From Pseudomonadota bacterium (GTDB lineage Bacteria; Pseudomonadota; Alphaproteobacteria; Rhizobiales; JAKPQE01): DNA of 64,000 nucleotides. The stretch is from contig JAKPQE010000034.1 of the NCBI GenBank assembly GCA_029572955.1, positions 116,968 to 180,967 of the forward strand, in the 5' to 3' direction. The position numbers and the translations under genes were made by a program. Shown piece after piece: positions 6,154-64,000 of this stretch. Numbering within the stretch: the stretch's first letter is position 1; each line of letters begins with the position of its first letter. The notes under the pieces were generated by a model, which was not told the origin of the DNA, did no database searches, and saw nothing but the letters and a program-made list of their open reading frames with translations.

Positions 6154-6196
6154 GCGCCGCGCACGATCCGGCACCGAACGACGGTCGCCGGTCCGC

Positions 6197-7135
6197 TCAG
6201 GCCCGCGGGTGGGCCTTTTCGTAGGCCTCGAGTAGCCGCGCCGAATCGACGGCCGTATAGACCTGCGTCGTCGAGAGATCGGCGTGGCCGAGCAGCTCCT
6301 GGATGGTGCGCAAATCGCCGCCCTTGGCGAGGAGATGGGTGGCAAAGGAGTGGCGCAGCGCGTGCGGCGTCGCCGTCTCGGGAAGGCCGAGGGCACCGCG
6401 CAACCGCTCCATGGCGAGCTGCACGACGCGCGGCGACAGCCGCCCGCCCTTGGCGCCGTAGAACAGCGGATCGTCGGCGGTCGCGCCGTAGGGACAGGCG
6501 GCGAGATAGGCCTCGACCGCCCGCCGCGCCACCGGCAGCACCGGCACGATGCGCGTCTTGCCGCCCTTGCCGGTGATCCGCAGCGCGTCGCGCTTGGCGG
6601 TCGGCGCCTCGCCGCGATTGAGCGACAGCGCCTCGGAGATACGCAGCCCGCAGCCGTAGAGCAGCGTCATCACCGCCGCGTCGCGAAGCGCGATCCACGG
6701 CTCGCCGAAATGCATGTCGGCATCGGTGACGGCCCGCGCCGACTTGACGTCGAGCGGCCGCGGCAGAGAGCGGTTCTGCTTCGGCGCCCGCACCGCCGCC
6801 GCGCCGGCGGCATTGGCGAGCCCCTGGCGCTCGAGGAACTTCAGCAGCGAGCGGATGCCGGCGAGGCCGCGGGCGAGCGTGCGCGCCCCGGCGCCGGTCA
6901 GCCGGCGCGCCGCCATGAAGGCACGGAAGTCCGCCGCCCGCAGCTCGGCGAGATCGACGATCTTCGGCGGCTCGCCGAGATGGCCGGTAAGGAACATCAG
7001 GAACTGGCCGACGTCGCGGTCATAGGCCTCGACGGTCTTTGCCGCGAGACGTCGCTCGGCCTCGAGATGCCGCCGCCACAGCGCGATCGCGGCAAGGAGG
7101 TCGGGCGCGGCGAAGACGAGAAACGGCTGGTTCAT
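6197..7135 (-). CDS. xerC: site-specific tyrosine recombinase XerC/XerD family
   Basis: 312 aa. N-terminal core-binding domain (TVEAYDRDVGQFLMFL). C-terminal catalytic region HALRHSFATHLL...LLGHADLSTTQVYT. Confidence 0.8.
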   Translation of the reverse strand: MNQPFLVFAAPDLLAAIALWRRHLEAERRLAAKTVEAYDRDVGQFLMFLTGHLGEPPKIVDLAELRAADFRAFMAARRLTGAGARTLARGLAGIRSLLKFLERQGLANAAGAAAVRAPKQNRSLPRPLDVKSARAVTDADMHFGEPWIALRDAAVMTLLYGCGLRISEALSLNRGEAPTAKRDALRITGKGGKTRIVPVLPVARRAVEAYLAACPYGATADDPLFYGAKGGRLSPRVVQLAMERLRGALGLPETATPHALRHSFATHLLAKGGDLRTIQELLGHADLSTTQVYTAVDSARLLEAYEKAHPRA

Positions 7136-43891: not shown

Positions 43892-45352
43892 CTACCGCCG
43901 CTGCTCGATGCGGTCGATGAACCAGCGCGTCAGGCGGATCCAGAGGTCGTCCTTGGTCATCGCGTCCTCGACCCCGTGCTCGATGTTCGGGTTGTCGTTG
44001 ACCTCGATGACGTAGATGCCGCCGTTTGTCTCCTTGATGTCGACGCCATAGAGCCCGCGGCCGATGAGCCGCGCCGCGCGCACGCCGATGTCGATCACCG
44101 CCGGCGGCGCATCGTCGAGCGAGAACGCCTTGAAGCCGCCCTCCAGCGGCTCGCCGCCGGTGTCGTGCTTGACGATCTGCCAGTGCTCCTTGGCCATCAG
44201 ATACTGCACGACGAACAACGGCTCGCCGTCGAGCACGCCGACCCGCCAGTCGAAGCTCGTCGGCATGAACTTCTGGGCGATGAGCAGGTCGGTCTCCTCG
44301 AACCACTCGTCGAGGAGCTTGGCGAAGGCCGCGCGGTTGTCGACCTTCTTGACGCCACGCGAGAACGAGCCGTCCGGGATCTTGACCACCAGCGGATAGC
44401 CGAGCGCCGCCTCGGCCTTGTCGATGTCGGTCGTCGAGGCCAGCATCACCGTCGGCGGCATCGGCAGGCCGTGCGCCGTCAGCAGCTCGTTGAGATAGAG
44501 CTTGTTGGTGCAGCGGATCATCGACACCGGATCGTCGATCACCGGCATGCCCTCCTGCTGGGCGCGGCGGGCGAAGCGGAAGGTGTGATTGTCGATCGAC
44601 GTCGTCTCGCGAATGAACAGCGCGTCGAACTCGGCGAGCCGCGGCAGGTCGCGCCTGGTGATCGGCTCGACCTCGACGCCGAGCTTCTCGGCGACCCGCG
44701 CCCAGTGCTTCAGCGAGGCGACCGAGGTCGGCGGCAGCTCTTCCTTGGGGTCGTGCAGCGCCGCGAAGGTGTAGCGCAGCGGTTCCTTGGCCTTCGGCCG
44801 CCGCCATTCGCGCTTGGTATAGGCGTGCAGGCTGTCGTGGAAGAAGCCGACCTCGTCCGGATGAAGCTTCGAGAGCGACACCGGCTTCAGCCGCTCGATC
44901 GCGTTCCACTCGCCGGCCTTGATCGTCACTTCGAGGATCGGGCAGCGGAACCAGTCGAAGGTGAGCCGCCCGAAGCGCTCGAAGCGCGGATCGGCGACGC
45001 CGCCGAAACAGACGAGCATGCGCGCCGGCAGGTCGCCGCCGCCTTTCCGCAGGCTCTTGTTGAGCGCGTCCTCGAGCTCCGGCAGGGCGTGCTCGTAGAG
45101 CCCGCGCGCGCCGAGTTCGAGCATCGTCTCGACCGTCGGCACGACGCGATGGCCGCGCGCCTCGGCGAGGAGCGACGCATAGTAACCCTGGCTCTGATAG
45201 GCGTAGGACCGCGAGAGATTGACGATCTTCGGGCGGTCGCCGCGAAACAGTTGCGGCCGTGCGAGATATTCCTTGGTGGTGATCACCTTGTGCGGGGTAT
45301 CCGCATTCGGCAGGTCTTTGGGGAAGTCGACGACGACGACCCAACCGGGCAT
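43892..45352 (-). CDS. RimK-family ATP-grasp ligase with N-terminal RLAN-type domain
   Basis: ORF 43892..45526 trimmed to ATG 45352 (MPGWVVVVDFPKD). The N-terminal ~190 aa is RLAN-like (IVNLSRSYAYQSQGYYASLLAEARGH). C-terminal ATP-grasp (YPLVVKIPDGSFSRGV, LIAQKFMP, GLYGVDIKE...IYVIEVNDNPN). Confidence 0.8.
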   Translation of the reverse strand: MPGWVVVVDFPKDLPNADTPHKVITTKEYLARPQLFRGDRPKIVNLSRSYAYQSQGYYASLLAEARGHRVVPTVETMLELGARGLYEHALPELEDALNKSLRKGGGDLPARMLVCFGGVADPRFERFGRLTFDWFRCPILEVTIKAGEWNAIERLKPVSLSKLHPDEVGFFHDSLHAYTKREWRRPKAKEPLRYTFAALHDPKEELPPTSVASLKHWARVAEKLGVEVEPITRRDLPRLAEFDALFIRETTSIDNHTFRFARRAQQEGMPVIDDPVSMIRCTNKLYLNELLTAHGLPMPPTVMLASTTDIDKAEAALGYPLVVKIPDGSFSRGVKKVDNRAAFAKLLDEWFEETDLLIAQKFMPTSFDWRVGVLDGEPLFVVQYLMAKEHWQIVKHDTGGEPLEGGFKAFSLDDAPPAVIDIGVRAARLIGRGLYGVDIKETNGGIYVIEVNDNPNIEHGVEDAMTKDDLWIRLTRWFIDRIEQRR

Positions 45353-45356
45353 GTGG

Positions 45357-46457
45357 TTATCCTCTCGTGACGACGATGGTCGCCTTGAGCCCGTCTCGGC
45401 CCCAGCGCGCCATGCGGTCGAATTCGCCATAGGGAATGGGCAAATTTGCGGCATCGGCGAGCACTTCGCCGCGCTTCTTTTCCACCCAGGGATCGTGGAT
45501 GAAAATGTGCCGCCCGTCGTCGCCATGGGCGATGACCCAGTGCGGCACCTTCTTGCCGAACATGCGGTAGCCCGAGATCAGCACGATGGCGACGGCGCCA
45601 CCCCGCAGCGCCTCGGCGGTGCGCTCGGTGCCGAGCGCCTCGTAGGTAACGGGAATGTCCATCGCCGCCGCCCGCGCCCGGAAGCACTCCTGGGCGATCC
45701 GCATTACCCGGCGGTTCTCGGCGTTGCGCACCGTCTCGAGGAACAGCGGCCCGTCGGCATTGATGTAGACGTGCGGCCGAAGGCCGTGCTCGGCGAGCGT
45801 GACGGCAAGGCCGAACGGCTCGCAGCCGCCGAGCCCCGTGGTCATGAAGATCGTCGTCGCCTCGCGCCACAGCCGCACCTCGGTGCGCTCGTCGAGCTCG
45901 AAGCCCGGATCGAAATGGGCGCAGGCCATCATCAGGCAGGCCGGGCCGCAGGTGAATTCCGTCGTCTGCTCGTAGTAGCGCGTCGTCACCTTGGGCGCGG
46001 CGCCGAGCCTCAGCAGCTTCTCGAAGCGCAGCGCGTCGGCATGGTCCTCGTAATAGTCGAGATAGCGGCCGAAGCGGCGGTAGCCGGCCCGCTCGTAAAG
46101 CGCGATCGCCGGGAGATTGTCCTCGCGCACCTCGAGGCGCAGCAGAATGCGGTCGCGATCGAACGCCGCCCGCTCCGCTTCGGCGAGGAGCAGCCCCCCG
46201 AGCCCGCGGCCGGCGCGGTCCGGCGCGACGGCGATCGAATAGAGCCGGGCGAGCGCCGTGCCGGCGCGAAAGAGCAGCATGGCGTAGCCGGCGACCTTGC
46301 CGTCGATCTCGGCGACGATGCAGGCCGCCGTCGGCGCGGCGACGAGGCTGCGGAACGAGCGCCGCGAGATGCGGTCGGTCGAGAAGGCGGCATCCTCGAT
46401 GGCGACGAGCGCGTCGACATCGCCAAGGCCGGCGGGACGAAAGACTGGGGTATCCAT
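45357..46457 (-). CDS. GNAT N-acetyltransferase fused to papain-like (C39-type) cysteine peptidase domain
   Basis: ORF 45357..46622 trimmed to ATG 46457 (MDTPVFRPAG). GNAT core IAVAPDRAGRGLGGLLL. C-terminal YEQTTEFTCGPACLMMA (Gln/Cys) and KKVPHWVIAHG...IHDP (His/Asp). Stop lies 4 nt before the ATP-grasp start. Confidence 0.78.
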   Translation of the reverse strand: MDTPVFRPAGLGDVDALVAIEDAAFSTDRISRRSFRSLVAAPTAACIVAEIDGKVAGYAMLLFRAGTALARLYSIAVAPDRAGRGLGGLLLAEAERAAFDRDRILLRLEVREDNLPAIALYERAGYRRFGRYLDYYEDHADALRFEKLLRLGAAPKVTTRYYEQTTEFTCGPACLMMACAHFDPGFELDERTEVRLWREATTIFMTTGLGGCEPFGLAVTLAEHGLRPHVYINADGPLFLETVRNAENRRVMRIAQECFRARAAAMDIPVTYEALGTERTAEALRGGAVAIVLISGYRMFGKKVPHWVIAHGDDGRHIFIHDPWVEKKRGEVLADAANLPIPYGEFDRMARWGRDGLKATIVVTRG

Positions 46458-46709: not shown

Positions 46710-46929
46710 AGCGGCTCATCGCTTGGCGACGGCGGTTCGTATACCGCCGACCGCCGACGAGTTCAAGCCCAATCGTCTCGCCCCGGGCGCACGAGTTTCG
46801 CCACCCGCCTCGGGTCCGGGCGAACTGCCACCACCGCGACGCGGCGCTGTTCCCGCACCACCGCCGCCGCCATTGCCATCCTCGGGGAAGGCTCTATCCT
46901 CGGCCTCCCCAAGGGTTCGGACGCCGGAC

Positions 46930-48612
46930 ATGCGCATTCTGTTTCTCGTTCACAGCTTCAATTCGCTTGCCCAGCGCCTCTATGTCGAACTCGCCGAAGC
47001 CGGTCACGAGCTCAGCGTCGAATACGACATCAACGACGAGACGACCCGCGAGGCGGTCGCCCTGTTCAGGCCGGACGTCGTGCTCGCGCCGTTCCTGAAG
47101 CGCGCCATCCCCGAGGATGTCTGGCGCGCCCTGCCCTGCCTCGTCGTCCATCCCGGCGTGCGCGGCGATCGCGGCCCGAACGCCCTCGACTGGGCGATCC
47201 TCCGGCGCGAGCAGAGCTGGGGCGTGACGATCATCGAGGCCGAGGCCGAGATGGACGCCGGCCCGGTCTGGGCCTGGCGTGAGTTCGAGATGCGCCATGC
47301 GCCGAAATCGAGCATCTACCGCAACGAGGTGACCGAGACGGCGGTCATCACCGTCTTCGAGGCGCTCGCGATGATCGAGGCGCGCGACTTCCGCCCGACC
47401 CGGCTCGACCTGACGAAGCGCGAGATCCAGGGCACCGAGAACCCGCCGGTGCGCCAGGCCGACCGCCGCATCAACTGGCATCGCGACACCTCGATGCGTG
47501 TCGCCCGCATGATCCATTCCGGCGACGGCACGCCCGGCCTCCTCGACGAGATCGACGGCGTTCCCTACTACCACTACGACGCCCGGCCGTGGACCGGCCG
47601 CGAGCATGTGCTCGGCGCGCGCGGCGCCATCGTCGCCAAGAGTGGCCCGGCGATCGCCCGCGGCACCCGCAACGGCCTCGTCTGGATCGGCCATCTCAGC
47701 GAAAAGCGCGAGCGCGCCCTGAAACTGCCGGCGACGACCGTGCTCGCCGGCCGCCTCGACGGCGTGCCCGAGATCGAGGGCGGCTATCGCGAGATCTGGT
47801 ACGAGGAGGAGGGCCAGGTCGGCTACCTGCATTTCGCCTTCTACAACGGCGCGATGAGCACCGACCAGTGCCGCCGCCTCGCCGCCGCCTACAAGGAGGC
47901 CCGGGCCCGGCCGACCCGCGTGCTCGTGCTGATGGGCGGCGCCGACTTCTGGTCGAACGGCATCCATCTCGGCACCATCGAGGCCGCCGAAAGCCCGGCC
48001 GACGAAAGCCTCGCCAACATCGAGGCGATGGACGACCTCGCCCTCGCGATCCTGACCACCGAGGACAAGATCGTCGTCTCGGCCCTGCGCGGCAATGCCG
48101 GCGCCGGCGGCGCGTTTCTCGCCCTTGCCGCGGACGAGGTCTGGGCGCGCTCAGGCATCGTCCTCAATCCCCATTACAAGGACATGGGCAACCTCTACGG
48201 TTCGGAATACTGGACCTACCTGTTGCCGAAGCGGGTCGGCGCCGAGACGGCCGCCGCGATCGCCGCGCGCCGACTGCCGATCGGCGTCGCCGAAGCGCTG
48301 CGCCTGAAGCTCGTCGACCGCGCCCTGCCGAACGAGCGCACCGCCGCCGAAGCGGAGATCCGCCAGCGCGCCCGGGAGCTGGCGACCCGCGAGGGCTTCT
48401 CCTCACGCCTCTGGGACAAGCGCATCGCCCGCGGCCGCGACGAGAAGGAAAAGCCCCTCGCCGCCTACCGCGCCGAAGAACTGGAGAAGATGCATCTCAA
48501 TTTCTACGGCTTCGATTCGAGCTACCACGTCGCCCGCTTCAACTTCATCCACAAGGTGCCGAAGTCGAGGACGCCACTGACGCTGGCAAGGCATCGGGCG
48601 AAGAAGGGGTGA
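46930..48612 (+). CDS. HypX/HoxX-like protein (N-terminal formyltransferase domain + C-terminal enoyl-CoA hydratase/crotonase domain)
   Basis: Real part of ORF 46723..48612. Start ATG 46930 (MRILFLVHSFNSLAQRL). Formyltransferase motifs LVVHPGVRGDRGPNALDWAI and EMDAGPVW. Crotonase motifs VLVLMGGADFWSNGIHL and GNAGAGGAFLALAAD. Confidence 0.75.
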   Translation: MRILFLVHSFNSLAQRLYVELAEAGHELSVEYDINDETTREAVALFRPDVVLAPFLKRAIPEDVWRALPCLVVHPGVRGDRGPNALDWAILRREQSWGVTIIEAEAEMDAGPVWAWREFEMRHAPKSSIYRNEVTETAVITVFEALAMIEARDFRPTRLDLTKREIQGTENPPVRQADRRINWHRDTSMRVARMIHSGDGTPGLLDEIDGVPYYHYDARPWTGREHVLGARGAIVAKSGPAIARGTRNGLVWIGHLSEKRERALKLPATTVLAGRLDGVPEIEGGYREIWYEEEGQVGYLHFAFYNGAMSTDQCRRLAAAYKEARARPTRVLVLMGGADFWSNGIHLGTIEAAESPADESLANIEAMDDLALAILTTEDKIVVSALRGNAGAGGAFLALAADEVWARSGIVLNPHYKDMGNLYGSEYWTYLLPKRVGAETAAAIAARRLPIGVAEALRLKLVDRALPNERTAAEAEIRQRARELATREGFSSRLWDKRIARGRDEKEKPLAAYRAEELEKMHLNFYGFDSSYHVARFNFIHKVPKSRTPLTLARHRAKKG

Positions 48613-54117: not shown

Positions 54118-55710
54118 ATGGCCGATTACTACGCCGTACTGAAACGTGCGCTGTCCGGCTTGCCGACCAACACCGGGGAAGCCCGGCGCGCGGTCTATGA
54201 CAAGGCCCGGAACGCGCTCGTCAATCAGCTGAAGGCGATCGAGCCGCCGTTGAAGCCCTCCGAGATCACGCGCCAGCGTCTCGATCTCGAGGAAGCGATC
54301 CGTCGCGTCGAGTCCGAAGCGGCCAATGCCGCCCTGTTCGCGCGCCGCAGTGCGTCCGCGCCGGCCCCGGAGGTGACCGCCGGCGCCCGCCCGACCGCCC
54401 CCGCCGTCGAGCCCCCGGCGCCGCCCAGGCGCGAGCCCGAGCCGCGCCCGGCGCCCGAGGCGCCCCGGCCGGAGGCACCCGCCGCGGCCGCCGAGGAAGA
54501 CGTTTTCGAGCCGGCACCGATGCCGAAGGCCGAGGCGCCGAAGGAGGCCGACAAGTTCGTCGCCGACGACCTGCACCAGGTCGTTCGTGCCGCCGAAGCC
54601 CTTGGCGGCGCGAGCCGCGAGGCCGCCCGCGGCGCCCGCGAGACGCTCGCCTCCCTCGACGAGGAAGCCGCCGTCGAGACGCGGATCGAGCCGCGCATGG
54701 AGCCGCCGGCGCCGAAGGCCGAGGCAAGCCCGCCGCATCCCGAGAAGGCGACCCGCCACACGCCGGTGGTCGCCGAGGAGCCCGGGGCGGACGCCGACGA
54801 CGAGGCCGCCTTCGAGGAGGCGCCGATCGAGCGGCTGCCCGACAGCGGCGGCGGCACGCTGAAATTCCTGATCCTGATCCTCGTCGTCCTGCTGGTCGGC
54901 GTCGGCGTCATCGGCTGGCTGCAGCGCGACGCGCTGTTCGGCCCCTCCTCCGACCCCGGAACCGAGCAGCAGACCGGCGCCGGCGAGGCGACCGACAAGC
55001 CGTCGGCCTCCGGCAAGATCGAGGACCGCCTGCCGCAGGACGGCGTGCCTGAGACCCAGAAGCCGGCCGACAGCGGCCCGGCGCTGCCGCCCGCCAAGGA
55101 CGACGGCGCCGCCGCGACCACCGACGCCGGGCCGGCGACCGCCGCCGCGCCCGACAGCGGCGTCTCCGCCAGCCTCGTCGCCCAGCGTTCGATCCTCTAC
55201 GAGGAAGCCGCACCCGAGGACCCCGAGAAGGGCATCGCCCTTGCCGGCGGCGTCACCTGGGAAGTCGGCCGTGACGACCAGTCGAGCGATCCGGTCATCC
55301 GCGCCCGCATCGAGGTGCCGGACCGCGGCCTGCGGGTCATCCTGACCATCCGGCGCAACAACGACACGGCATTGCCGGCGAGCCATCTGGTCGAGATGCT
55401 GTTCGACTTCCCGGCCGATTTCCCCGGCCAGGGCATCGCGTCGGTGCCGGGCCTGATCCTCAAGGCCAGCGAGCAGGAGCGCGGCGAGGCGCTGCGCGGC
55501 GCTGCGGCCAAGGTCGCCGACGGCTTCTTCTGGATCGCGCTCTCCTCCACCGAGGAGGACCGCAAGAAGAACCGCGAGCTGCTGACGAGCCAGACCTGGT
55601 TCGACATCCCGCTGATGTATCAGAACGGCCGCCGCGCCATCCTGACCCTCGAAAAGGGCGTGCCGGGCGAGCGGGCGTTCCAGGAGGCCTTCGCCGCCTG
55701 GGGCGAATGA
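54118..55710 (+). CDS. hypothetical single-pass membrane protein with Pro/Ala/Glu-rich linker
   Basis: 530 aa. Helical N-terminal domain (MADYYAVLKRALSGL), a long P/A/E-rich low-complexity segment, one TM helix (LKFLILILVVLLVGVGVIGWL), and a globular C-terminal ~200 aa. Confidence 0.6.
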   Translation: MADYYAVLKRALSGLPTNTGEARRAVYDKARNALVNQLKAIEPPLKPSEITRQRLDLEEAIRRVESEAANAALFARRSASAPAPEVTAGARPTAPAVEPPAPPRREPEPRPAPEAPRPEAPAAAAEEDVFEPAPMPKAEAPKEADKFVADDLHQVVRAAEALGGASREAARGARETLASLDEEAAVETRIEPRMEPPAPKAEASPPHPEKATRHTPVVAEEPGADADDEAAFEEAPIERLPDSGGGTLKFLILILVVLLVGVGVIGWLQRDALFGPSSDPGTEQQTGAGEATDKPSASGKIEDRLPQDGVPETQKPADSGPALPPAKDDGAAATTDAGPATAAAPDSGVSASLVAQRSILYEEAAPEDPEKGIALAGGVTWEVGRDDQSSDPVIRARIEVPDRGLRVILTIRRNNDTALPASHLVEMLFDFPADFPGQGIASVPGLILKASEQERGEALRGAAAKVADGFFWIALSSTEEDRKKNRELLTSQTWFDIPLMYQNGRRAILTLEKGVPGERAFQEAFAAWGE

Positions 55711-55764
55711 GGACAAGGGGTCCCGGGACCCGGCGGCCTGCCGGGTGACCCGAGCGAACACGCG

Positions 55765-55806
55765 AAAGGCGCGCCGACCTCCAGGTCGGCGCGCCTTTTT
55801 CGTTTT
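55765..55806 (+). terminator. rho-independent terminator (may serve both convergent genes)
   Basis: aaaggcgcgccgacc-tcca-ggtcggcgcgccttt followed by ttcgtttt. Confidence 0.75.
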
Positions 55807-55851: not shown

Positions 55852-56430
55852 TCAGAAGTCGCCTTCGGCGCCGCGCTTCATCACGTCCTGGATGATCCGC
55901 TTGACCTCGATCGCCTCGGCCCGGACGTCCTCGGGCAGCGGCTTGCCGCCATGGATCATCATGTCCATGTCGAGGCTGTAGAGCCACAGCTTGCCGGTCT
56001 TGTCCTCGACGAGCGTCACCCGGCACGGCAGATAGGCCGAGAAGGCGTCGTCGAAGTCCATCATCTTGGCCGCGGTCAGCGGGTTGCAGTAGAGGTAGAT
56101 CTTGACCTGGCGCCACTTGCCGCCGGTCATCGCCTCGATCTGGCGGCCGAGCGGCAGCGCCCCGACATCCTTGATGTTGTTCTCGATGGCGATCGACTGG
56201 ATCGACTCGTCGACATCCTCGAAGCTCAGCCCCTCGGCGACCTCGGTCTTCCAGACGGTCGCCTGCGCCGGGCTGCCGGTCTCCAGCAGCTTCACCGCCA
56301 TCGTCTTGTAGGTCGCGTACGCGCCGGGATCGAATTCGGTGAAGAACGGCCTGACCTTGGCGCCGACGACGGCGGCCCCGATCAGCGCGACGACGCCGAT
56401 CGCCGCCAGCAGATTGCGGATGAAACCCAT
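55852..56430 (-). CDS. DUF302 domain-containing protein with N-terminal membrane anchor/signal
   Basis: ORF 55852..57054 trimmed to ATG 56430 (MGFIRNLLAAIGVVALIGAAVVGA). DUF302-like core VKIYLYCNPLTAAKMMDFD...LPCRVTLVEDKTGKLWLYSL. Confidence 0.75.
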   Translation of the reverse strand: MGFIRNLLAAIGVVALIGAAVVGAKVRPFFTEFDPGAYATYKTMAVKLLETGSPAQATVWKTEVAEGLSFEDVDESIQSIAIENNIKDVGALPLGRQIEAMTGGKWRQVKIYLYCNPLTAAKMMDFDDAFSAYLPCRVTLVEDKTGKLWLYSLDMDMMIHGGKPLPEDVRAEAIEVKRIIQDVMKRGAEGDF

Positions 56431-56599: not shown

Positions 56600-57739
56600 T
56601 CACTGCGCCGGCTTGGCCTCGCCGGCCATGCCACCCATGCCGGACATGCCGCCCATGCCCTGCTGCGGCATCGGCGGATAGCCCGGAGGTGCCGGATAGC
56701 CCGGCGCCGGCGGGTAAGCCCCGCCCTGCGGGCCGCCCGGATACTGCGGCACGTAGCCGCCCGGCTGGCCGTAACCGGCCGGCGGCTGGCCGTAGCCCGG
56801 CGCACCGCCCTGCGGACCGCCATACTGCGGACCCGGATAACCGGCCGGCGGCTGGCCATAGCCCGGCGCGCCACCCTGCGGACCGCCATACTGCGGACCC
56901 GGATAGCCGGCCGGCGGCTGGCCGTAGCCCGGCGCACCACCCTGCGGACCCGGGCCGCCCTGCGGACCCGGACCGGCCTGCGGCGCCGGGCCTTCCGGCT
57001 GGGCCGGCGCCTCGAGCTTGCGATAGCCTTCCGGCACGCTGAACAGCGCCGCATCCGGCTTGATCAGCTGCACGCCGCGCAGTTCGCGCGCCATGCCGCC
57101 CGGGAAGTGCTCATAGACGTTGAGCTTGTATTCCGGGTCGAACAGAACGACGCCGTTCTCGAAGCGGCCGTTCGGCTGACGGAAGCCGATTTCCCAACGC
57201 TCGACCAGGCGCCCGCCGAACTTCTCGGTGCCCTGCAGGGTGCCCTGCATCACGCGACCGTCCGGGAATTCCTGCCGGATCACCATCTTGCGCTCGGTAT
57301 CCCAGAGCACCTTGAGGGCGCCGGGCATGCCCTTCGGCGTCACTTCCCACTTCTCGACCTTGACGCCGGCGATCTGATCTTCACCGACCCGCTCGCACTT
57401 CAGCTCCTCGGAGGCGACGCACGGCGCGTCGCTCGGGGCCGAAATCTGGCCGACGCCTTCGGGCGCGGGAAATTCCACATAGGTCCGATCGTCGGGGAAG
57501 AGCACCCGCGCGGTGCCGTCCTTGGCGGAGCGGATCTCGATGATCCGTCGGCCGTCCTTCAGCGACTCGAAGCGCACACCTTCCGCCGTCACGAAGATCG
57601 TGCCGCTCTGTGTGCCCATGCCCGGCACGGTCATCACGGCATTGGCCGTGAATTCCACCGGCTCGGCAGCCGCCGGCGACAGGCTCACCAGGCTCACCAG
57701 AGCCGTGCCCGCCGCGATGGCCGTCCAGTTCCTTGACAT
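56600..57739 (-). CDS. secreted protein A: LolA/DUF4412-like N-terminal domain + Gly/Pro/Gln/Tyr tandem-repeat, Met-rich C-terminal tail
   Basis: 379 aa. Signal [27 protein letters not shown], then ~230 aa globular ([45 protein letters not shown]). Three repeats of ~22 aa follow ([22 protein letters not shown]), ending [24 protein letters not shown]. Confidence 0.7.
56775..56960. repeat. 66-bp in-frame tandem repeat (about 2.8 copies) inside gene A
   Basis: Units start at 56775, 56841 and 56907 (ccggccggcggctggccgtagcccggcgcaccgccctgcggaccgccatactgcggacccggataa) with few substitutions. Confidence 0.8.
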
Positions 57740-57927: not shown

Positions 57928-58299
57928 TTACTGAGCCGGAGCAGCCGGAGCGGCCGGAGCGGCCGGAGCGGCCGGCGGGGCCGGCGGGGCATAGCCATAC
58001 GGGGCATAGCCGTACGGAGCGCCGTAGCCATACGGAGCGCCGTAGCCCGGATAACCGCCCCAGCCATAGCCCGGATAGCCGTAGCCGTAGCCGTTGCCAT
58101 AGCCACGACCGCCGCCACGGCCGCCGAAGCTCATGTTGAAATCGCCGTCACCCCAGCCGTTGCCGTCCCAGGGGCCACCGCCGCCCCACGGGCCGCCGCC
58201 CCAGGGGCCCCAGCCCCAGGCATTCGCACTGGTGGTGGCGGCAGCGGCCGCGAGGCCGACAACGCCGGCGAACAGCGTCGCCTTCAGGATCTTCATCAT
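57928..58299 (-). CDS. secreted protein B: small Trp/Gly/Tyr/Pro low-complexity protein (sulfur-globule-protein-like composition)
   Basis: ORF 57928..58848 trimmed to ATGATG 58299, with AAGGAG 7 nt upstream. Signal [27 protein letters not shown]. Then [23 protein letters not shown]...[58 protein letters not shown]. Confidence 0.65.
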
Positions 58300-58405: not shown

Positions 58406-58876
58406 CTACCAGGCACCGAGGACCCACGGCGCCGCAAAACCGGGCGTCGCGAGCATGTGTGGATCGGCATAGGGCCCGTAACCCGGACCCATGAGACCGT
58501 AGCCGGGCGCCCCGAGGCCGTAGCCGCCGAGCACGCCGCCAAAACCGCCAAAACCGCCGTAGCCGCCGAGCGGCGCCATCGGGTAGCCGTAGGGCGCACC
58601 GTAGCCCCAGGCGCCATACCCGGCCGGCGGCGCATAGGCCGGCGCGGCGGGTGCGGCAGGTGCCGGGCTCGTCGCCGGCGGCGCCTGATAGCCGTAGCCG
58701 CCGCTCGGCCGGCCGCTGCCGGAGAACACGTTGCCCGTGGTCTGCGGATCCTGCGGCACGTAGGACTGCCCGGCCGGCGCCCACGGATTGCGCCCTTGCG
58801 CGAGCGTCGGCTGCACCGCGGCGAGGAACGCCATGGCGAAGACCGCAAGCACCGTCAGAGCTGTGACCTCGTTCAT
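58406..58876 (-). CDS. secreted protein C: Gly/Tyr/Pro/Ala low-complexity protein
   Basis: 156 aa. Signal [27 protein letters not shown]. Shares GAPYGY and PAAPAAPA motifs with protein B. ATG lies 11 nt after the protein D stop, with GAGGA in between. Confidence 0.65.
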
Positions 58877-58887
58877 CGTCGTCCTCG

Positions 58888-60336
58888 TCAGCGCGCTTGC
58901 CCGGGCGCCTGCGGCGGCCAGGCGGAAATGGAAGCCGTCATCGGCGCGCCGGTATGGCTCCGCGGCGCCGGCCGGCTACCGAAATCGACGCGCACCGTGT
59001 TGCCGGCGGACGGCAGCGCACCGTTGTGCGGCGGATAGACCGCGATGCCGACGCCGGTCACCGTGTTCGAGCCGCGCTGCTCCGGCAGGGCGCCGCCCCG
59101 GCCGCCGCCCGCCTCGGGCGTGAAGCCGCCCGGCGGAAACCCCTGGCCGGAAACCGGGCCGGTCGAATAGGGCAGATTCTTGTCCCGCCCGGCGGTACCG
59201 ACCGGCTGCCCGGGTGCGAACGGCATGCCCGGCGCGGCCGGCGCGTATGTCGGCGCGCCACCGTTCCAGGGACTCGCGGCGCCGGCCGGCACGGTCGGGC
59301 TCGGCCGTTCCGGTGCCGGCGGCGGAGCGTAGGCCGGCGCGGCGTAAGGATAGCCCGGCATGCCATAGGCCGGCGGGTAGGGCGCGGCGAAGCCGTAGCC
59401 GGGCATCGGGCCGTAGCCCGCGGGCGGCACCGGGCCACCGGGATAACCAGCGGCGGGCGCCGGCCAGGCCGGAGGCGCCGGCGGGCGCCCGCCATATCCG
59501 CCGTAGCCGTCGACCCGCGGCGGCGCACCATAGGGCCGATAGCCCGGATACGCCGTTCCCCCCTGCGAGTCGGCCGTTCCCCCCTCCGGCGGGAAGTCCG
59601 AATAGCGCGGCATGCCCGGATAGCCCGGCGCACCCGGCGCCGCCGGTCCGGCCGCCCCGGCGGGCGGCACCGCATTTCCCGCGCCGTCGCTGCCGCCCCA
59701 TCCGGGGCCGGACCAGTCGTGACGGCCGCTGGCATAGTGATCGTTGACCGAGATCGGCTCGGCGCCGGTGTGCGGCAGCGGCCAGGGCGCCCCGCCCTGC
59801 CCCCAGGCCGGCACCGGAACACCGTCGCCCGACATACCGGACATGCCCGACATGCCGGACATGCTGTCCATCGGCATCGGCATCGGCATCGGCGCACCGG
59901 CCGGTCCGCCGAGCGGCATATAGCCCGGCGCCTGCAGCGGCGTGCTGCCGCCGACGGCCGAGAAGCTGCCGACCGCATCCTTCTCCGAAGCAGCGGAGGC
60001 GTCCTTCCTGTCCTGCTCGGGATCGTAGCCGACCGGCGGATAGGCGCCGAACTGACCGGCCTGCGCCATCTGCGGTCCGACCGCCGCCGGCTCCCAGGCC
60101 GCCGCCGCGGGTCCCGCCCCCGGCAGCCGGTGCTCGACCGCGGTGAGTTCGCAGCAGCGCTGGCGGCCGAAATCGACGTTCCCCGTCTCCGGCAGCAGCA
60201 TCGCGGTGCGGGCCGCCACGTCCCGTCCGGCCGCCTCGGCCGGCGTGTCGATCACCCCGCGCGCTGCCGGCAGCGCCATGGCCAGGGCCCCGAGGCCGGC
60301 CATCGTCAGCAAATGAACCTTCTTCAGTGCCATCAC
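58888..60336 (-). CDS. secreted protein D: large Pro/Gly/Ala/Tyr/Met low-complexity protein
   Basis: 482 aa. Signal-like MMALKKVHLLTMAGLGALAMALPAARG. PMPMPMPMDSMSGMSGMSGMSG block plus GYGGYGG and [16 protein letters not shown] motifs. The start GTGATG overlaps the RND stop TGA, with AAGGGAGGG upstream. Confidence 0.65.
   Translation of the reverse strand: MMALKKVHLLTMAGLGALAMALPAARGVIDTPAEAAGRDVAARTAMLLPETGNVDFGRQRCCELTAVEHRLPGAGPAAAAWEPAAVGPQMAQAGQFGAYPPVGYDPEQDRKDASAASEKDAVGSFSAVGGSTPLQAPGYMPLGGPAGAPMPMPMPMDSMSGMSGMSGMSGDGVPVPAWGQGGAPWPLPHTGAEPISVNDHYASGRHDWSGPGWGGSDGAGNAVPPAGAAGPAAPGAPGYPGMPRYSDFPPEGGTADSQGGTAYPGYRPYGAPPRVDGYGGYGGRPPAPPAWPAPAAGYPGGPVPPAGYGPMPGYGFAAPYPPAYGMPGYPYAAPAYAPPPAPERPSPTVPAGAASPWNGGAPTYAPAAPGMPFAPGQPVGTAGRDKNLPYSTGPVSGQGFPPGGFTPEAGGGRGGALPEQRGSNTVTGVGIAVYPPHNGALPSAGNTVRVDFGSRPAPRSHTGAPMTASISAWPPQAPGQAR
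59831..59893. repeat. in-frame microsatellites inside gene D (9-bp x4 then 6-bp x4)
   Basis: gacataccg-gacatgccc-gacatgccg-gacatgctg, then (catcgg)x4. These encode (MSG)4 and (MP)3-4. Confidence 0.75.
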
Positions 60337-63300
60337 CCGTGCCCTCCCTTGGCTTTCCGGGTTGCGACGCGGCGCGCCTTGCGCATGTCCGCCCGCGACT
60401 GCCGCCGCCGCTCGCCGTGGCGAGCCTGGCCGGCGGCATTCTCATCGCCGTCATCCGGCGAGATCTCGGTATCGTCGTGTTCGTCGTCGTCCGCCGTGAC
60501 CGGCGCCGCGACCACCATCGGCTCGTCTTCGACGAGAACCGGCTTTGCCGTCTTCGGCGGCGCCTTGCGCGCCGGCTCGGCATCAACGCTGTGATCGGCC
60601 TTGCGCGCCACTGCGGCGGCGGCCGACCGCGGCTTTGCCTTCGCCGCGCGCGGCTTCGGCGCTTCGGCCGGCGTCTCGGCCACCGGCTCGTCGGCGACCT
60701 CGGCAGTCTCGGCGGCGGCGCTCTCGGCCCGCTCTTCCGCGGCCGCATCGAGGATCAATTCCGCTTCGGCAGCCGCTTCGGCATCCATGTCGGCCGTGTC
60801 GGTGTCGTCGTCCGTCATCGTGCCGGCGGCGTGCGGCGCCGCTTCGGCCGCGACGGCCACTTCGTCAGCACCGGTCTCGGAGAAGATCTCGTCCGCCTCG
60901 AGCGCGGCCTCGGCCTCGTCACCGGCGACTTCGTCCTCGGCTTCCATCGCCGCCACCGCTGCAGCGGCAGCCGCCGCGGCCGACGTCACCGCCTTCGACG
61001 TGGTCTCGGCAGGCGCCGGGGCCGGGGTCGGAGCTGGAGTAGCCGCCGGAGCGGGTGCCGGGGCCGCCGCCTCGGCGACGGGCTCGCTCTTGGCCGGCGC
61101 GGCCTTGGCCGGAGCCGCGGCAGCCGGGGTCGCGGCTGCGGTCGGCGCTGCCGGCGCGGGCTGCGGCTTCGGCGCACCACCGCCGCCACCGCCACCGCCG
61201 GTCGGACCGCTCGGCGGCTTCGGCCGCTTGAAGATGCCCTTCGCGGTTTCCTTGATGAACAGCCACAGGAACGTCGGCAGGGCGCGGATCGCATAGAAGA
61301 CGAAGGTGATCTTCTCCGGGTCGATGACCTTGGAGACCAGCGCCTTGATGCCCATCCAGGCCATGATGAACACCGCCCGGACCATGTAGAAGGCCATCAT
61401 CAGCGCCTGGCCGATGCGGCCGGGCTCCGAGGGCGCCTCGTCGACGGCGGCCACCGCGCCGTTCTCGCCGAGGCTCGAGCGCGCCTTGACGCAGGCCAGC
61501 GGGATCAGCATCAGCGTCAGCAGGGTCGAGACCATGCCGCCGAACATCAGCGAGATCGCCATGCCCTGGAAGATCGGGTCGGTGATGATGACGCTCGAGC
61601 CGGCGACGAGGGCGAGCGCCGTGATCAGGATCGGCCGGGTACGCGTGCGCGCCGCCTGCAGCACCGCCTCGCGCGGCGCCATTCCGGCCATCACCGCCTG
61701 CTGCGAGAAGTCGACGAGCAGGATCGAGTTGCGCACGATGATGCCGGCGAGCGCGATGAAGCCGATCATCGAGGTCGCGGTGAACTCGGCGCCGAGCAGC
61801 ATGTGGCCGGGCACGATGCCGATCAGCGTCAGCGGGATCGGCGCCATGATGATGCCGGGCAGGCGGAAGTTTCCGAACTCCCAGACGACCAGCATGTAGA
61901 TCATCACCATGGCCGCCGCGAAGGCGATGCCCATGTCGCGGAACGTCTCGTAGGTGACGGTCCACTCGCCGGTCCACTCGAAGGCCGAGGTGAAGCTGTC
62001 TTCCGGCGGGCCGATCCAGTTGGCGTCGAGCTTGACGCCGTCGGGCGCCGTGTAGTCCTCGAGCAGGTGCTCGACCTCGATCATGCCGTAGATCGGCGCG
62101 CCGAGACGGCCGGCGACGTCGCCGGTGACGTATTCGATCGGCCTGAGGTCCTTGTGATAGATCACGAGGTCTTCCGGCAGGCGGTCGAAGCGGCCGAGCT
62201 CGGCGATCGGCACCATGGTGCCGGCCTGCGAGCGGATCGGAATCTCGCCGAGGCGCGACATCTGGCTGCGCACCTCGAGCGGCGCCTGCAGCACGATGAA
62301 GCGCGGCTCGAGCTCGTGGCCGAGCTTGGCGTCGCCGAGGCGGAAGCCGCCGAGCGCCATCGCCAGCTGCTCGTTGACCGAGGCGATGGTGACGCCCTTC
62401 AGGGCCGCCTTCTGGCGATCGATCATGAACTGCCAGCGCTGGTAATGCGCGGTCAGGTAATTGTCGACGTCGACGACCGAGGGCGCCTTCTCGAAGATCG
62501 CGGTCAGATCCTCGGCGACGCGCCGCCGGGTCGTGGCATCGGGACCGTAGACTTCGGCGACCAGCGTCTGCAGCACCGGCGGTCCGGGCGGCATTTCGAT
62601 GACCGCGACCTTGGCGCCCATTTCCTTGGCGATCGGGCTCAGCGCGGCGCGCGCCGCCACGGCGATCTGGTGGCTCGAGCGGTCACGGTCGCTCTTGTTG
62701 ACGAGCTGGACCTGGACGTCGGCCTCCCAGGGGTGCTGGCGCAGGTAGTAGTGCCGCACCAAGCCGTTGAAGTTGAACGGCGAGGCGGTGCCGGCATAGC
62801 TCTGCACCGCCGTCACTTCCTCCATCTCGAGCAGCTTGTCGGCCACCCGCTGGGCGACGTTCGCGGTGGTCGCCAGCGCCGTGCCTTCCGGCATGTTGAT
62901 GACGACGTTGAACTCCGGCTTGTTGTCGAAGGGCAGCATCTTCACGGCGACATGCGTCGTGTAGAAGGCCATGCAGAACAGCAGGAACACGCCCCAGATC
63001 GCGAGCTTCAGGATGCGGTTCTTGGCCTTGCTCTCCATGAACGGCACGAGCAGGCGCTTGTAGAAGCGGCCGAGCGACTCGCTCTGGCGGTGCTCCTTGT
63101 CCTGCGCCTTGGAGAGCTGGGCCAGCGACGGCCGGATGCGGTAGGCGAGCCACGGCGTGAACACGAAGGCGGCGAACAGCGAGAACAGCATCGCCACCGA
63201 GCCGAGCGCCGGGATCGGCTCCATGTAGGGGCCCATCATGCCCGACACGAAGCCCATCGGCAGCAGTGCCGCGATGACGGTGAAGGTCGCCAGAATGGTC

Positions 63301-64000
63301 GGGTTGCCGACCTCGCGCACCGCGTCGACCGTCGTCTCGGTGTCGATGTCGCCCTTCAGCAGCCAGCGCCGGTAGATGTTCTCCACGACGACGATCGCGT
63401 CGTCGACGAGGATGCCGATCGAGAAGATCAGCGCGAACAGGGACACGCGGTCGATGGTGTAGTTGAGCACCCAGGCCGCGAAGACGGTGATCAGGATGAC
63501 CACCGGGATGACGATCAGCACCACGGTCGCCGCCCGGATGCCGAGCGCCATCAGGATCAGGATGGTGACCGCGCCGGTCGCCACGAACAGCTTGAAGATC
63601 AGCTCGTTGACCTTCTCGTTCGCGGTCTCGCCGTAGTTCCGGGTGATCGACACCTGGACGTCGCCCGGGATCACCCGACCCTTCAGGTAGTCGACCTTCT
63701 CGAGAATCGCGTCGGCGACGGTGACGCCGTTGGTGCCGGTCTTCTTGGCGATCGCGATGGTGACCGCGGCAGCGCCCCCGTCGGCCCGCACGCTCGCGTC
63801 CTCGGCCGCCGGGCCGGTGAAGTACTGGACGACGCTGTCCGCCTCGCCCGGCCCCTCGATGACATTGGCCACATCGCGCAGATAGACCGGGCTGCCATTG
63901 AAGGTGCCGACGACGAGGCGTTCCAGGTCCGCCGCATGCTCGAGGAATTCGCCGGAATAGACGGTGAAGCTCGTGCCATCCATTTCGGCCTGGCCGACCT
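60333..64000 (-). CDS. RND superfamily efflux permease (N-terminus beyond right window edge) with ~380-aa C-terminal extension
   Basis: The frame is open to position 64000. RND core motifs FSIGILVDDAIVVVENIYRR and GFIALAGIIVRNSILLVDF. After the last core TM (about 61480) come two extra hydrophobic helices, a Gly8 run, and a ~300-aa Ala/Pro/Glu/Asp-rich tail ending in a basic RRRQSRADMRKARRVATRKAKGGHG. Confidence 0.85.
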   Translation of the reverse strand, partial: VGQAEMDGTSFTVYSGEFLEHAADLERLVVGTFNGSPVYLRDVANVIEGPGEADSVVQYFTGPAAEDASVRADGGAAAVTIAIAKKTGTNGVTVADAILEKVDYLKGRVIPGDVQVSITRNYGETANEKVNELIFKLFVATGAVTILILMALGIRAATVVLIVIPVVILITVFAAWVLNYTIDRVSLFALIFSIGILVDDAIVVVENIYRRWLLKGDIDTETTVDAVREVGNPTILATFTVIAALLPMGFVSGMMGPYMEPIPALGSVAMLFSLFAAFVFTPWLAYRIRPSLAQLSKAQDKEHRQSESLGRFYKRLLVPFMESKAKNRILKLAIWGVFLLFCMAFYTTHVAVKMLPFDNKPEFNVVINMPEGTALATTANVAQRVADKLLEMEEVTAVQSYAGTASPFNFNGLVRHYYLRQHPWEADVQVQLVNKSDRDRSSHQIAVAARAALSPIAKEMGAKVAVIEMPPGPPVLQTLVAEVYGPDATTRRRVAEDLTAIFEKAPSVVDVDNYLTAHYQRWQFMIDRQKAALKGVTIASVNEQLAMALGGFRLGDAKLGHELEPRFIVLQAPLEVRSQMSRLGEIPIRSQAGTMVPIAELGRFDRLPEDLVIYHKDLRPIEYVTGDVAGRLGAPIYGMIEVEHLLEDYTAPDGVKLDANWIGPPEDSFTSAFEWTGEWTVTYETFRDMGIAFAAAMVMIYMLVVWEFGNFRLPGIIMAPIPLTLIGIVPGHMLLGAEFTATSMIGFIALAGIIVRNSILLVDFSQQAVMAGMAPREAVLQAARTRTRPILITALALVAGSSVIITDPIFQGMAISLMFGGMVSTLLTLMLIPLACVKARSSLGENGAVAAVDEAPSEPGRIGQALMMAFYMVRAVFIMAWMGIKALVSKVIDPEKITFVFYAIRALPTFLWLFIKETAKGIFKRPKPPSGPTGGGGGGGGAPKPQPAPAAPTAAATPAAAAPAKAAPAKSEPVAEAAAPAPAPAATPAPTPAPAPAETTSKAVTSAAAAAAAAVAAMEAEDEVAGDEAEAALEADEIFSETGADEVAVAAEAAPHAAGTMTDDDTDTADMDAEAAAEAELILDAAAEERAESAAAETAEVADEPVAETPAEAPKPRAAKAKPRSAAAAVARKADHSVDAEPARKAPPKTAKPVLVEDEPMVVAAPVTADDDEHDDTEISPDDGDENAAGQARHGERRRQSRADMRKARRVATRKAKGGHG

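Follow-up and report, generated by a model that had tools for sequence, protein, structure and literature searches.

How does an efflux-type transporter come to carry a long C-terminal tail, and what might that tail do? The question is raised by a gene at one end of a 64,000-nucleotide stretch of contig JAKPQE010000034.1 (assembly GCA_029572955.1, Alphaproteobacteria, Rhizobiales), which is called the window here and is always meant at its full length. There, the reading frame of a permease of the resistance-nodulation-division (RND) type runs on for 381 codons past its last canonical transmembrane (TM) helix, TM12. The present analysis, which follows up an earlier reading of the letters alone (the sequence-only reading), identifies this extension from its coding signatures as the genuine translated C-terminus of the permease and, from its homologues, as the hallmark of a distinct and uncharacterised RND subfamily. 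As to its role, we lean towards a flexible cytoplasmic tether that would dock the pump onto a scaffold inside the cell.

The permease itself is readily placed. Its open reading frame (60333..63983, minus strand) is unbroken for 1216 codons, and the last 17 bases of the window hold no preceding stop. Pfam ACR_tran (PF00873) matches residues 8-829 of the window protein (E 2.7e-104; 350 bits against a cut-off of 28), covering profile positions 228-1015 of 1021; since the match begins at profile position 228, the gene must run past the end of the window, with about 250 N-terminal residues missing. Two relatives supply the remainder. The orthologue in a Hyphomicrobiales metagenome-assembled genome (locus L001, 91% identical) is full length at 1465 amino acids (aa), with ACR_tran at residues 37-1079 (E 6.2e-138, 461.6 bits, profile positions 3-1015). 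A protein from an independent assembly in a public collection (P0001) has 1195 aa, is cut at the end of its contig and is 100% identical to the window product over all 950 shared residues, through a run of eight glycines (Gly8).

An AlphaFold2 model of P0001 (monomer; 107-homologue alignment) reaches a mean confidence (pLDDT) of 85.7. Superposed on AcrB, AcrD and CmeB, whose sequence identity to it is about 20%, the model gives target-normalised TM-scores of 0.83-0.90. Specifically, an Asp-Asp pair in TM4 (D444, D445, P0001 numbering), R1001 in TM10 and R1033 in TM11 are invariant in the 107 homologues; by our own motif mapping (VDDA, RNSILL, RTRPI) they would be the counterparts of AcrB D407, D408, K940 and R971. 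The window protein is thus classed, by profile, fold and these residues, as an AcrB-type RND permease and is predicted to be proton-driven. It shares with AcrB, AcrD, CmeB and MdtB (HAE-1-like) the 12-TM core, two periplasmic porter loops, an end-to-end ACR_tran match and, in relatives, an HlyD-type adaptor gene upstream. It nevertheless differs from AcrB-type pumps in having only about 20% identity to them and, as a subfamily, a C-terminal extension of 120-540 aa that is absent from all solved RNDs. The multidrug HAE-1 families of NCBIfam tell the same story: RND_permease_1 scores 308 bits and RND_permease_2 255 (cut-off 1250 for both), and TIGR00915 scores 210 (cut-off 940), a shortfall far exceeding what some 250 missing residues could account for. 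Such scores set these proteins apart as a separate clade and, by annotation rules, not as drug pumps. MMPL (PF03176) appears merely as an overlapping secondary match in some homologues, the best matches being AcrB-type, and the databases name these proteins "efflux RND transporter permease subunit" and nothing more.

From the core to its last codon, the window protein is laid out as follows, with residues numbered along the window protein unless P0001 is named.

61497..63962, minus strand: RND permease core (residues 8-829; Pfam ACR_tran); the gene continues past base 64000.
61488..61565, minus strand: TM12, the last canonical RND helix (residues 807-832; from hydropathy); the alignment to solved RND chains stops just beyond it.
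61419..61487, minus strand: acidic linker after TM12 (residues 833-855; pLDDT below 50 at P0001 1093-1106), variable in length and sequence among homologues.
61323..61418, minus strand: helix A, RIGQALMMAFYMVRAVFIMAWMGIKALVSKVI, the first FYxxRA...W copy (residues 856-887; predicted helix at P0001 1106-1134, pLDDT about 57-76).
Residues 888-890: DPE turn between the helices.
61224..61313, minus strand: helix B, KITFVFYAIRALPTFLWLFIKETAKGIFKR, with the conserved motif FYA(L/I)RALP(Y/T)F.WL.IKE (residues 891-920; predicted helix at P0001 1139-1168).
61161..61223, minus strand: Pro/Gly hinge PKPPSGPTGGGGGGGGAPKPQ (residues 921-941; pLDDT below 50), with the Gly8 run at 61176-61199.
60975..61160, minus strand: neutral Pro/Ala spacer (residues 942-1003; 71% Ala+Pro).
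60669..60974, minus strand: main acidic block (residues 1004-1105; net charge -31).
60426..60668, minus strand: residues 1106-1150, a basic block of net charge +7, and then residues 1151-1186, acidic again at -14.
60336..60425, minus strand: basic C-terminal peptide (residues 1187-1216; net charge +10).

Counted from just after TM12, the extension comprises residues 836-1216 (60336-61478) and carries a net charge of -23. The sequence-only reading had described a frame running on for about 380 codons without a stop, through two hydrophobic segments, a Gly8 run, APA-rich and acidic low complexity and a basic terminus, and all of these elements are present in one continuous frame; the start coordinate it gave, 60333, belongs to the stop codon of the RND gene. 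Its premise that canonical RND permeases end shortly after TM12 is borne out as well. Solved chains, among them MdtB, CmeB, MexK, AcrB, AcrD and OqxB, all cease aligning within about 30 residues of TM12, at P0001 1079-1099, and within about 30 residues of their own ends.

Several signatures indicate that this stretch is translated. GC content at third codon positions (GC3) is 0.86 in the tail frame and 0.58 and 0.76 in the other two frames. In the DNA alignment of the window and L001 tails, at 67% identity, each of the eight indels has a length divisible by three, and the ratio of nonsynonymous to synonymous substitutions (dN/dS) against L001 is 0.31 in the disordered part and 0.11 in the core. 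The frame-specific GC3, the in-frame indels, a dN/dS below 1 and the identical independent assembly are together the reason for counting the extension as translated. Conservation is also patterned within it. The Gly8 run is encoded by a mixture of GGC and GGT, and its counterpart in L001 reads GSGGGGGG; the main acidic block contains islands shared with L001 (SKAVTSAAAAAAA, EADEIFSETGADE and DMDAEAAAEAE); and the last 23 residues, RQSRADMRKARRVATRKAKGGHG, are the same in the window and L001 despite synonymous differences there. Conservation at the extreme C-terminus may partly be due to the next gene, because the start codon of that gene overlaps and a Shine-Dalgarno-like AAGGGAGGG lies in the KGGHG codons.

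The AlphaFold2 check that the sequence-only reading had proposed for disorder gives pLDDT below 50 in the linker and from the Gly run onward. The model of P0001 covers the first 28 or so tail residues after helix B, and the composition of the remainder suggests that it would be disordered too. Searches with the tail against Pfam and NCBIfam (E up to 1) and against PDB sequences (E up to 10) returned nothing beyond glycine-linker noise.

Is the extension peculiar to this lineage? Homologues were collected as the best 120 for the window protein and the best 120 for a member from Thiococcus (Chromatiaceae), about 230 close homologues being listed in all. Almost all of the first set are 1200-1600 aa long, those below 1200 aa being "partial" in name, on short contigs or simply shorter (P0065, P0119); nearly all of the second are 1200-1430 aa, with three shorter, one of them labelled partial. 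Essentially all complete sequences have 90-520 residues beyond the end of TM12, and in the one-genome-per-species loci 73 of 74 complete tails measure 121-432 aa. The alphaproteobacterial carriers belong to Hyphomicrobiales, Rhodobium, Rhodospirillaceae and Rhodobacterales, the gammaproteobacterial ones to Chromatiaceae, Sedimenticola, Candidatus Thiodiazotropha, Parabeggiatoa, Thiorhodospira and Granulosicoccaceae, and Magnetococcales are represented as well. A gene fusion specific to one lineage, which the sequence-only reading had offered as an alternative, is refuted by this spread across the listed homologues: aligned with them, RND homology to solved chains ends just past TM12 while the extension spans the subfamily, of which it is, on this comparison, a hallmark. 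That reading had also asked whether the extension might prove a common, already annotated subfamily feature; common in the subfamily it is, but no annotation or description of it was found in the literature searched. A natural tail-less comparator is at hand in locus L060 (9236-12541): this RND, 61% identical, has a tail of just 12 residues and is accompanied neither by an adaptor gene nor by any of the cluster genes described below.

The far ends of these tails fall into classes, assigned here by regular expressions. The majority class ends in a short basic peptide, RRGIRLK, defined by the pattern [RK][RK][GRA]I[RKQ][LVI][KNSR] within about 35 residues of the C-terminus; it is found in 126 of 193 tails, at a median of 8 residues from the end, with the logo R100 R99 G99 I100 R94 L94 K86. 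Lys or Arg precede it and a median of eight acidic or polar residues follow. These tails are basic and rich in Ala, Pro and Lys, and precomputed Pfam annotation reports a histone-H1-like HC2 domain for some. A second class ends in a folded helix-hairpin-helix domain, GIGP...L..G...QIA.W...GRI.RE.W..QA, which is COG3743-like, is matched by Pfam HHH_5, Cdd1 or DNA_pol_lambd_f, and goes by the JGI name "flap endonuclease-1-like".

The window protein carries two copies of the membrane-proximal helix FYA(L/I)RA.P.F.WL and stands outside both terminal classes. The RRGIRLK pattern is absent from the window protein and L001, which end in KARRVATRKAKGGHG, where R-R and the final K alone align with the logo. 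For the helix-hairpin-helix domain, the window tail has no Pfam match (E up to 1), and L001, collinear with the window tail, has no match to the regular expression. Near the end, Rhodobium and P0002-P0006 have A-R-R-A-V-S-K-R-T-T-A-R, and the window and L001 have K-A-R-R-V-A-T-R-K-A-K (KARRVATRKAK, at 60348-60380 in the window); both may be degenerate versions of RRGIRLK. P0002-P0006 also have, after their helix, a PAPA-rich stretch similar to the window's spacer. Acidic blocks occur in the window and L001 alone (net tail charge -23 and -19), whereas the nearest relatives range from +9 to +21 and homologues at large from -37 to +90.

The near end of the tail is marked by its helices. Helices A and B carry one common motif, FYxxRA followed by an aromatic residue, and this shared motif makes them an internal duplication. 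No member of the alphaproteobacterial clade lacks the second copy (M-A-F-Y-A-L-R-A-L-P-Y-F-x-W-L-x-I-K-E), in which Y, A, R, A and P are invariant (alignment A2). Helix A is missing from P0002-P0006, the nearest named relatives, which include Rhodobium orientis, and from P0019, P0020, P0043, P0062 and P0088; some other members have it. Gammaproteobacterial members have one related helix, LFYAVRGIFLLL, and some Magnetococcales have none. A metagenomic homologue, P0122, has the MAFYALRALPYF.WLAIKEAFGS helix twice in tandem at residues ~189-260, the copies being nearly identical, which implies that helix copy number shifts by recent duplication. The hydrophobic moment of these helices is 0.28-0.47, against 0.07-0.18 for TM8, TM11 and TM12 (for helix A, 0.31 against 0.07-0.11); an Arg in mid-helix is invariant, and Lys or Arg stand on every flank, the connecting loop included.

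The C-terminus of AcrB-type RND permeases is cytoplasmic. Spanning helices in odd or even number would place the tail on alternate sides of the membrane, and because the distal tail and terminal motif persist at every copy number, the helices are read as non-spanning. They are probably amphipathic and lie on the cytoplasmic face of the membrane, to judge from moment and charge. The "two extra helices" of the sequence-only reading therefore stand as two hydrophobic segments that are predicted helices, while a membrane-spanning nature is improbable, the number being zero, one or two among relatives that keep the distal motif. A profile of the helix module searched against 1.84 billion representatives gave six matches, all of them C-terminal fragments of this RND subfamily, in a library clustered at 50% identity, so that the count says nothing on family size. 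The possibility that the module is a mobile domain was considered and ruled out, since all six matches belong to the same subfamily.

In the window, the permease gene is followed by five further genes of an apparent operon.

60331..60347, minus strand: junction of the RND stop (TGA, 60333-60335) with the next start (GTG, 60334-60336, or ATG, 60331-60333).
58891..60336, minus strand: downstream gene 1, 482 aa, signal peptide, Pro/Gly/Ala/Tyr-rich, no family match; a homologue occupies the same place in L001.
58409..58876, minus strand: downstream gene 2, 156 aa, signal peptide, Gly/Tyr/Pro-rich, no family match.
57931..58293, minus strand: downstream gene 3, 121 aa, of the sulfur globule protein family, secreted, Gly/Trp/Tyr-rich (Pfam SGP PF17228 at 55.3 bits, cut-off 26.7; E 1.2e-14).
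56603..57739, minus strand: downstream gene 4, secreted, with a weak N-terminal match to Pfam DUF4412, at least three near-identical repeats and then a Met/Gly-rich end.
55855..56430, minus strand: downstream gene 5, membrane-anchored DUF302 protein (Pfam DUF302, E 1.2e-12), the last gene of the apparent operon.
55764-55799: terminator-like, 16-bp GC-rich perfect hairpin with T-runs, between the convergent DUF302 and 530-aa genes.

The stop/start overlap, of the form GTGA or TGATG, recurs in L001, L023 and L083; together with the Shine-Dalgarno-like AAGGGAGGG, which lies inside the last five RND codons, it suggests translational coupling. The hairpin is probably a bidirectional terminator that closes the operon. 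The sequence-only reading had heard in the tail an echo of the downstream low-complexity genes, and this likeness proves superficial: the downstream products are periplasmic proteins with signal peptides, rich in Gly, Tyr, Pro and Trp, whereas the tail is cytoplasmic and rich in Ala, Glu, Asp and Pro. GC-rich codon usage is their common ground.

Across the subfamily, cluster genes were sought by tblastn within 10-kb flanks at 80 loci; they keep a conserved order and are distributed as follows.

Protein of about 131 aa, no known family: 36 loci, upstream of the adaptor gene.
HlyD-type adaptor (membrane fusion protein, MFP): 71 of 80 loci, directly upstream of the RND gene.
RND permease: 80 loci.
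Secreted low-complexity proteins: variable; signal peptide, Gly/Tyr/Pro-rich.
DUF4412-like protein: 30 loci, its N-terminal domain conserved downstream of the RND gene.
ParA/MinD-type ATPase of about 210 aa: 57 loci; deviant Walker A motif KGGSGKST; Pfam CbiA, MipZ, ParA.
Membrane-anchored DUF302 protein: 20 loci.
DUF948-like membrane/coiled-coil protein: 46 loci.
Dynamin-family GTPase with C-terminal membrane segments: 48 loci, nearby.

Examples of such clusters are L023 5457-17605 and L084 6647-16985. By its gene content, the cluster looks like an organelle biogenesis or positioning locus. The MFP gene lies directly upstream in L001 (HlyD_D23, HlyD_3), a position that in the window falls beyond base 64000. 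No gene for an outer-membrane factor (OEP) was found in the conserved cluster of L081-L086, L088 and L090, the sole OEP gene, in L087, being 7 kb off on the opposite strand; a shared TolC-like protein encoded elsewhere is possible. In this, too, the cluster departs from AcrB-type loci, as it has secreted low-complexity and sulfur-globule proteins instead of drug-resistance regulators. The protein of about 131 aa has 69% mean column identity and several invariant Trp residues and always lies just upstream of the MFP gene (L001 7262-7765, L023 7372-7773, L081 8382-8780); a by-eye guess that it is an SCP2-like lipid carrier was dropped after profile searches of PDB and Pfam gave no match. In alphaproteobacterial clusters, a PAS-containing sigma-54-dependent activator is divergent from the operon (L081 6653-8068, L083 6629-8029, L085 6565-7992, L088 6337-7725), an arrangement that suggests sigma-54 control; in L001 the activator is split into two open reading frames (5648-6391 and 6388-7134), possibly by a frameshift.

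Two features of this genomic company stand out. Where the downstream flank of an RRGIRLK locus extends to 6 kb or more, a ParA-like gene lies within that distance in 52 of 57 cases, whereas in all six loci examined that have a helix-hairpin-helix tail the 10 kb to each side contain no ParA, CbiA or MinD gene (Fisher's exact p 7e-6, ignoring phylogeny). As the genomes are related and the test ignores phylogeny, the association of tail type with the ParA-like gene is suggestive only. The other feature is a recurrent link to sulfur. Pfam SGP scores above its cut-off in 5 of 10 candidates from other loci, and SGP genes lie downstream of the RND gene in the window, L009, L014, L026, L028 and L080. 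The Sgp-like proteins of Magnetococcales resemble Sgp by eye and fall below Pfam SGP significance. Cluster-bearing taxa include Chromatiaceae, Sedimenticola, Thiodiazotropha, Parabeggiatoa and Magnetococcales, and in Thiocapsa bogorovii the cluster adjoins FccAB, the flavocytochrome c sulfide dehydrogenase. The operon thus appears conserved in sulfur-oxidising Proteobacteria, within sulfur-globule-protein clusters, the physiological link being drawn from taxon names and gene content.

The sulfur globule proteins SgpA, SgpB, SgpC and SgpD of Allochromatium vinosum offer a known point of reference: an SGP member lies 2 kb downstream of the permease in the same apparent operon of the window, and likewise in several relatives. 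In A. vinosum, sgpD has been reported to lie beside a gene for a hydrophobic/amphiphilic exporter (PMC10386293), a candidate member of the present RND subfamily. Allochromatium was not among the best 120 homologues of the Thiococcus member; Thiocystis and Thiocapsa were. In the literature searched, no role of an RND pump in sulfur-globule biology was found, and neither the cluster, the subfamily, the helix module nor RRGIRLK turned up in searches that combined RNDs with sulfur globules, DUF302, ParA or dynamin. A 2025 review of bacterial organelle positioning is silent on sulfur globules (PMC13052382).

The available data are compatible with a model, to which we give somewhat better than even credence, in which the tail would be a flexible cytoplasmic tether that docks the pump, and with it a periplasmic sulfur-globule site, onto a cytoplasmic scaffold. 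Three modules would serve this end: one or two amphipathic FYALRALPYFxWL helices that keep the start of the tail at the membrane; a long, fast-evolving disordered spacer, in the window Pro/Ala-rich and then strongly acidic; and a short conserved basic peptide at the extreme end. In most members the scaffold would be the nucleoid, engaged through RRGIRLK, the ParA/MinD-type ATPase of the cluster and the histone-H1-like Ala/Pro/Lys tail, and in others the nucleoid would be reached through the terminal helix-hairpin-helix domain. Such tethering might spread pumps, and perhaps the periplasmic globules that they serve, along the cell. The substrate may, as a guess from context, be hydrophobic sulfur species or envelope components that are exported or handed over. 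The window's lineage would be a derived variant, in which the cluster has lost its ParA-like and dynamin-like genes, the spacer has turned into an acidic block polyampholyte and the basic end has degenerated. Because this basic end is strictly conserved with L001, a docking function probably persists; the candidate partners are anionic lipid, DNA, a different ATPase or, in the manner of a switch, the acidic blocks of the tail itself. The suggestion of the sequence-only reading that the tail may be a cytoplasmic scaffold or tether is thereby the one that family comparison favours most.

Known systems lend this model several partial precedents. Peptides that activate small ParA ATPases, such as those of ParG, the ParB N-termini and PomX, are short, basic and contain Arg, as RRGIRLK does. 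Three devices are known that attach bacterial inclusions to the nucleoid, namely histone-H1-like Ala/Lys/Pro tails (PhaM, PhaF, AlgP), a helix-hairpin-helix (PhaH) and a ParA-type ATPase with a basic disordered partner (McdA-McdB) (PMC13052382). All three devices match features at the ends of subfamily tails. They differ in being soluble adaptors on cytoplasmic inclusions, while here an inner-membrane transporter would be the adaptor and the inclusion would be periplasmic; the window protein, moreover, is acidic and has none of the three devices. For the tail as such, the nearest likeness is to MmpL3, MmpL11 and MmpL13, RNDs with a long disordered cytoplasmic C-terminal domain; in MmpL3 this domain, which transport does not require, directs the protein to the pole, interacts with partners and is regulated by phosphorylation (PMC10171966). 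The likeness is confined to function, as MmpL proteins belong to another RND family, from Actinobacteria, with another periplasmic architecture and no MFP, and have no FYALRALPYF module, no RRGIRLK or helix-hairpin-helix end and no similarity to the tail.

A number of observations count against the tether model or against the steps that lead to it. The window protein itself has neither RRGIRLK nor a helix-hairpin-helix domain nor a ParA-like neighbour: tblastn with the ParA-like protein of L023 hits 57 loci, none of them in the 64-kb window, the L001 flanks or L002, and the gene is also absent in L081-L083, which belong to the window's clade. Its tail is net acidic, so that a role as a DNA or nucleoid tether is not simply transferable to it, and the proposed equation of KARRVATRKAK with RRGIRLK depends on two Arg and one Lys. 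Five RRGIRLK loci are without a ParA-like gene in the searched flank, and the putative link between the two is a co-occurrence of genes in related genomes. The annotated 20 kb downstream in the window hold no sulfur-oxidation genes; housekeeping genes lie there (purA, rlmN-like, nhaA, RimK-like and others). As to the helices, dN/dS against L001 is fairly high in their region (0.62, 70 codons), AlphaFold2 confidence for them is moderate (pLDDT 57-76), and an even helix number, as in the window, also fits a TM hairpin.

Such a hairpin is the main structural alternative: the segments would be a true TM13-TM14 pair in a 14-TM RND, with the chain returning to the cytoplasm and the tail merely following. 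The segments are 23-31 residues long and pass the Kyte-Doolittle threshold, AlphaFold2 gives two long helices with a short turn, and two helices would leave the tail cytoplasmic. We still regard the hairpin as rather unlikely, for a single helix is found in P0002-P0006, whose tails are laid out alike and which are 67-74% identical, and in the gammaproteobacterial members, while some Magnetococcales have zero, so that the RRGIRLK end would flip to the periplasm; the invariant mid-helix Arg and the Lys/Arg on both sides and in the connecting loop fit a spanning pair poorly, and TM8, TM11 and TM12 have hydrophobic moments that are lower by a factor of 2-4. That the whole extension is an artefact, a frameshift or assembly error joining the permease to a downstream gene, or else a recent lineage-specific fusion, is hardly credible. 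Unusual length alone would speak for it, against an identical independent assembly (P0001), the same architecture in L001 and about 200 further homologues from many taxa and assemblers, a frame-specific GC3 with every indel in frame, and a helix module that the search of 1.84 billion representatives never encountered as a free-standing protein.

If the extension is real, its distal part might still be idle or serve another end. One possibility is that the distal 290 residues or so are neutral low-complexity sequence, expanded by slippage and GC pressure, which would act at most as a length spacer and leave the helices alone to matter. Composition and charge do vary hugely (net -37 to +90), indels are many even against the 91%-identical relative, no domain matches, and the codons for Ala, Pro and Gly form the GC-rich classes, the genome having 70% GC. 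Neutral drift would hardly keep the frame over all eight indels at a dN/dS of about 0.3, spare conserved islands and the 23-residue terminus identical with L001, retain a near-invariant RRGIRLK or a folded helix-hairpin-helix end across the family, or leave almost every listed member with a tail of 120-540 aa, and we consider this account quite improbable. A regulatory or autoinhibitory domain, phosphorylated, partner-binding or with acidic blocks masking the basic end, is a slightly better but still unlikely substitute for a positional tether. It draws on the MmpL3 domain, which is phospho-regulated and mediates protein interactions (PMC10171966), on the window's block polyampholyte (-31, +7, -14, +10), which could fold back, and on Ser/Thr-rich islands. 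The conserved cluster, on the other hand, is without a kinase or phosphatase gene, and what is seen at the tail ends across the family (histone-like tails, a helix-hairpin-helix domain, co-occurrence with a ParA-like gene) speaks for attachment to the nucleoid more than for gating. Regulatory and tether roles would not be mutually exclusive.

The tether model can be extended to a bolder proposal, which we put forward tentatively and hold to be doubtful as it stands. Here, the subfamily would be the inner-membrane core of an unrecognised apparatus for making and positioning sulfur globules: an MFP-RND pair at the periplasmic globule would deliver hydrophobic sulfur species or organise the Sgp-like envelope, the tail would couple the globule across the membrane to the nucleoid by way of a ParA-type ATPase gradient (acting through RRGIRLK), a histone-like tail or a helix-hairpin-helix domain, dynamin-like GTPases of the cluster would remodel the membrane, and the window's acidic tail, with no ParA-like gene beside it, would represent an alternative mode of coupling.

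Further along the window, three genes deserve brief mention. The convergent gene beyond the hairpin (54118-55710, plus strand) encodes 530 aa without a Pfam or NCBIfam match, with a helical N-terminus, a long Ala/Pro/Glu-rich low-complexity part, one TM segment and a conserved C-terminal domain, and L001 has a homologue in the corresponding place. The other two, a RimK-like ATP-grasp protein that includes an RLAN domain (43895-45526, minus strand) and a formyltransferase/enoyl-CoA-hydratase fusion (46723-48609, plus strand), appear unrelated to the tail; a similar fusion lies beside hyp genes in L083, and the architecture is that of HypX.

To our knowledge, long cytoplasmic RND tails are rare and have been studied only in mycobacterial MmpL3. 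The present subfamily constitutes a second, independent and widespread case, in Gram-negative bacteria, and adds to it a new membrane-proximal helix module and a sharply conserved RRGIRLK peptide at the end of a hypervariable tail. Its genomic company of SGP genes, a ParA-like ATPase, a dynamin-like GTPase and conserved unknowns spans purple sulfur bacteria, lucinid and other symbionts, relatives of Beggiatoa and magnetococci. The window is a divergent member of this family, whose more modest value lies in indicating that tail chemistry can invert while architecture stays, and the lead at the level of the family outweighs it. Specifically, the cluster offers candidates for the nucleation, feeding, spacing and inheritance of globules in cultivable organisms such as Thiocapsa, and, if the proposal is true, it would amount to a trans-envelope positioning system for sulfur globules.

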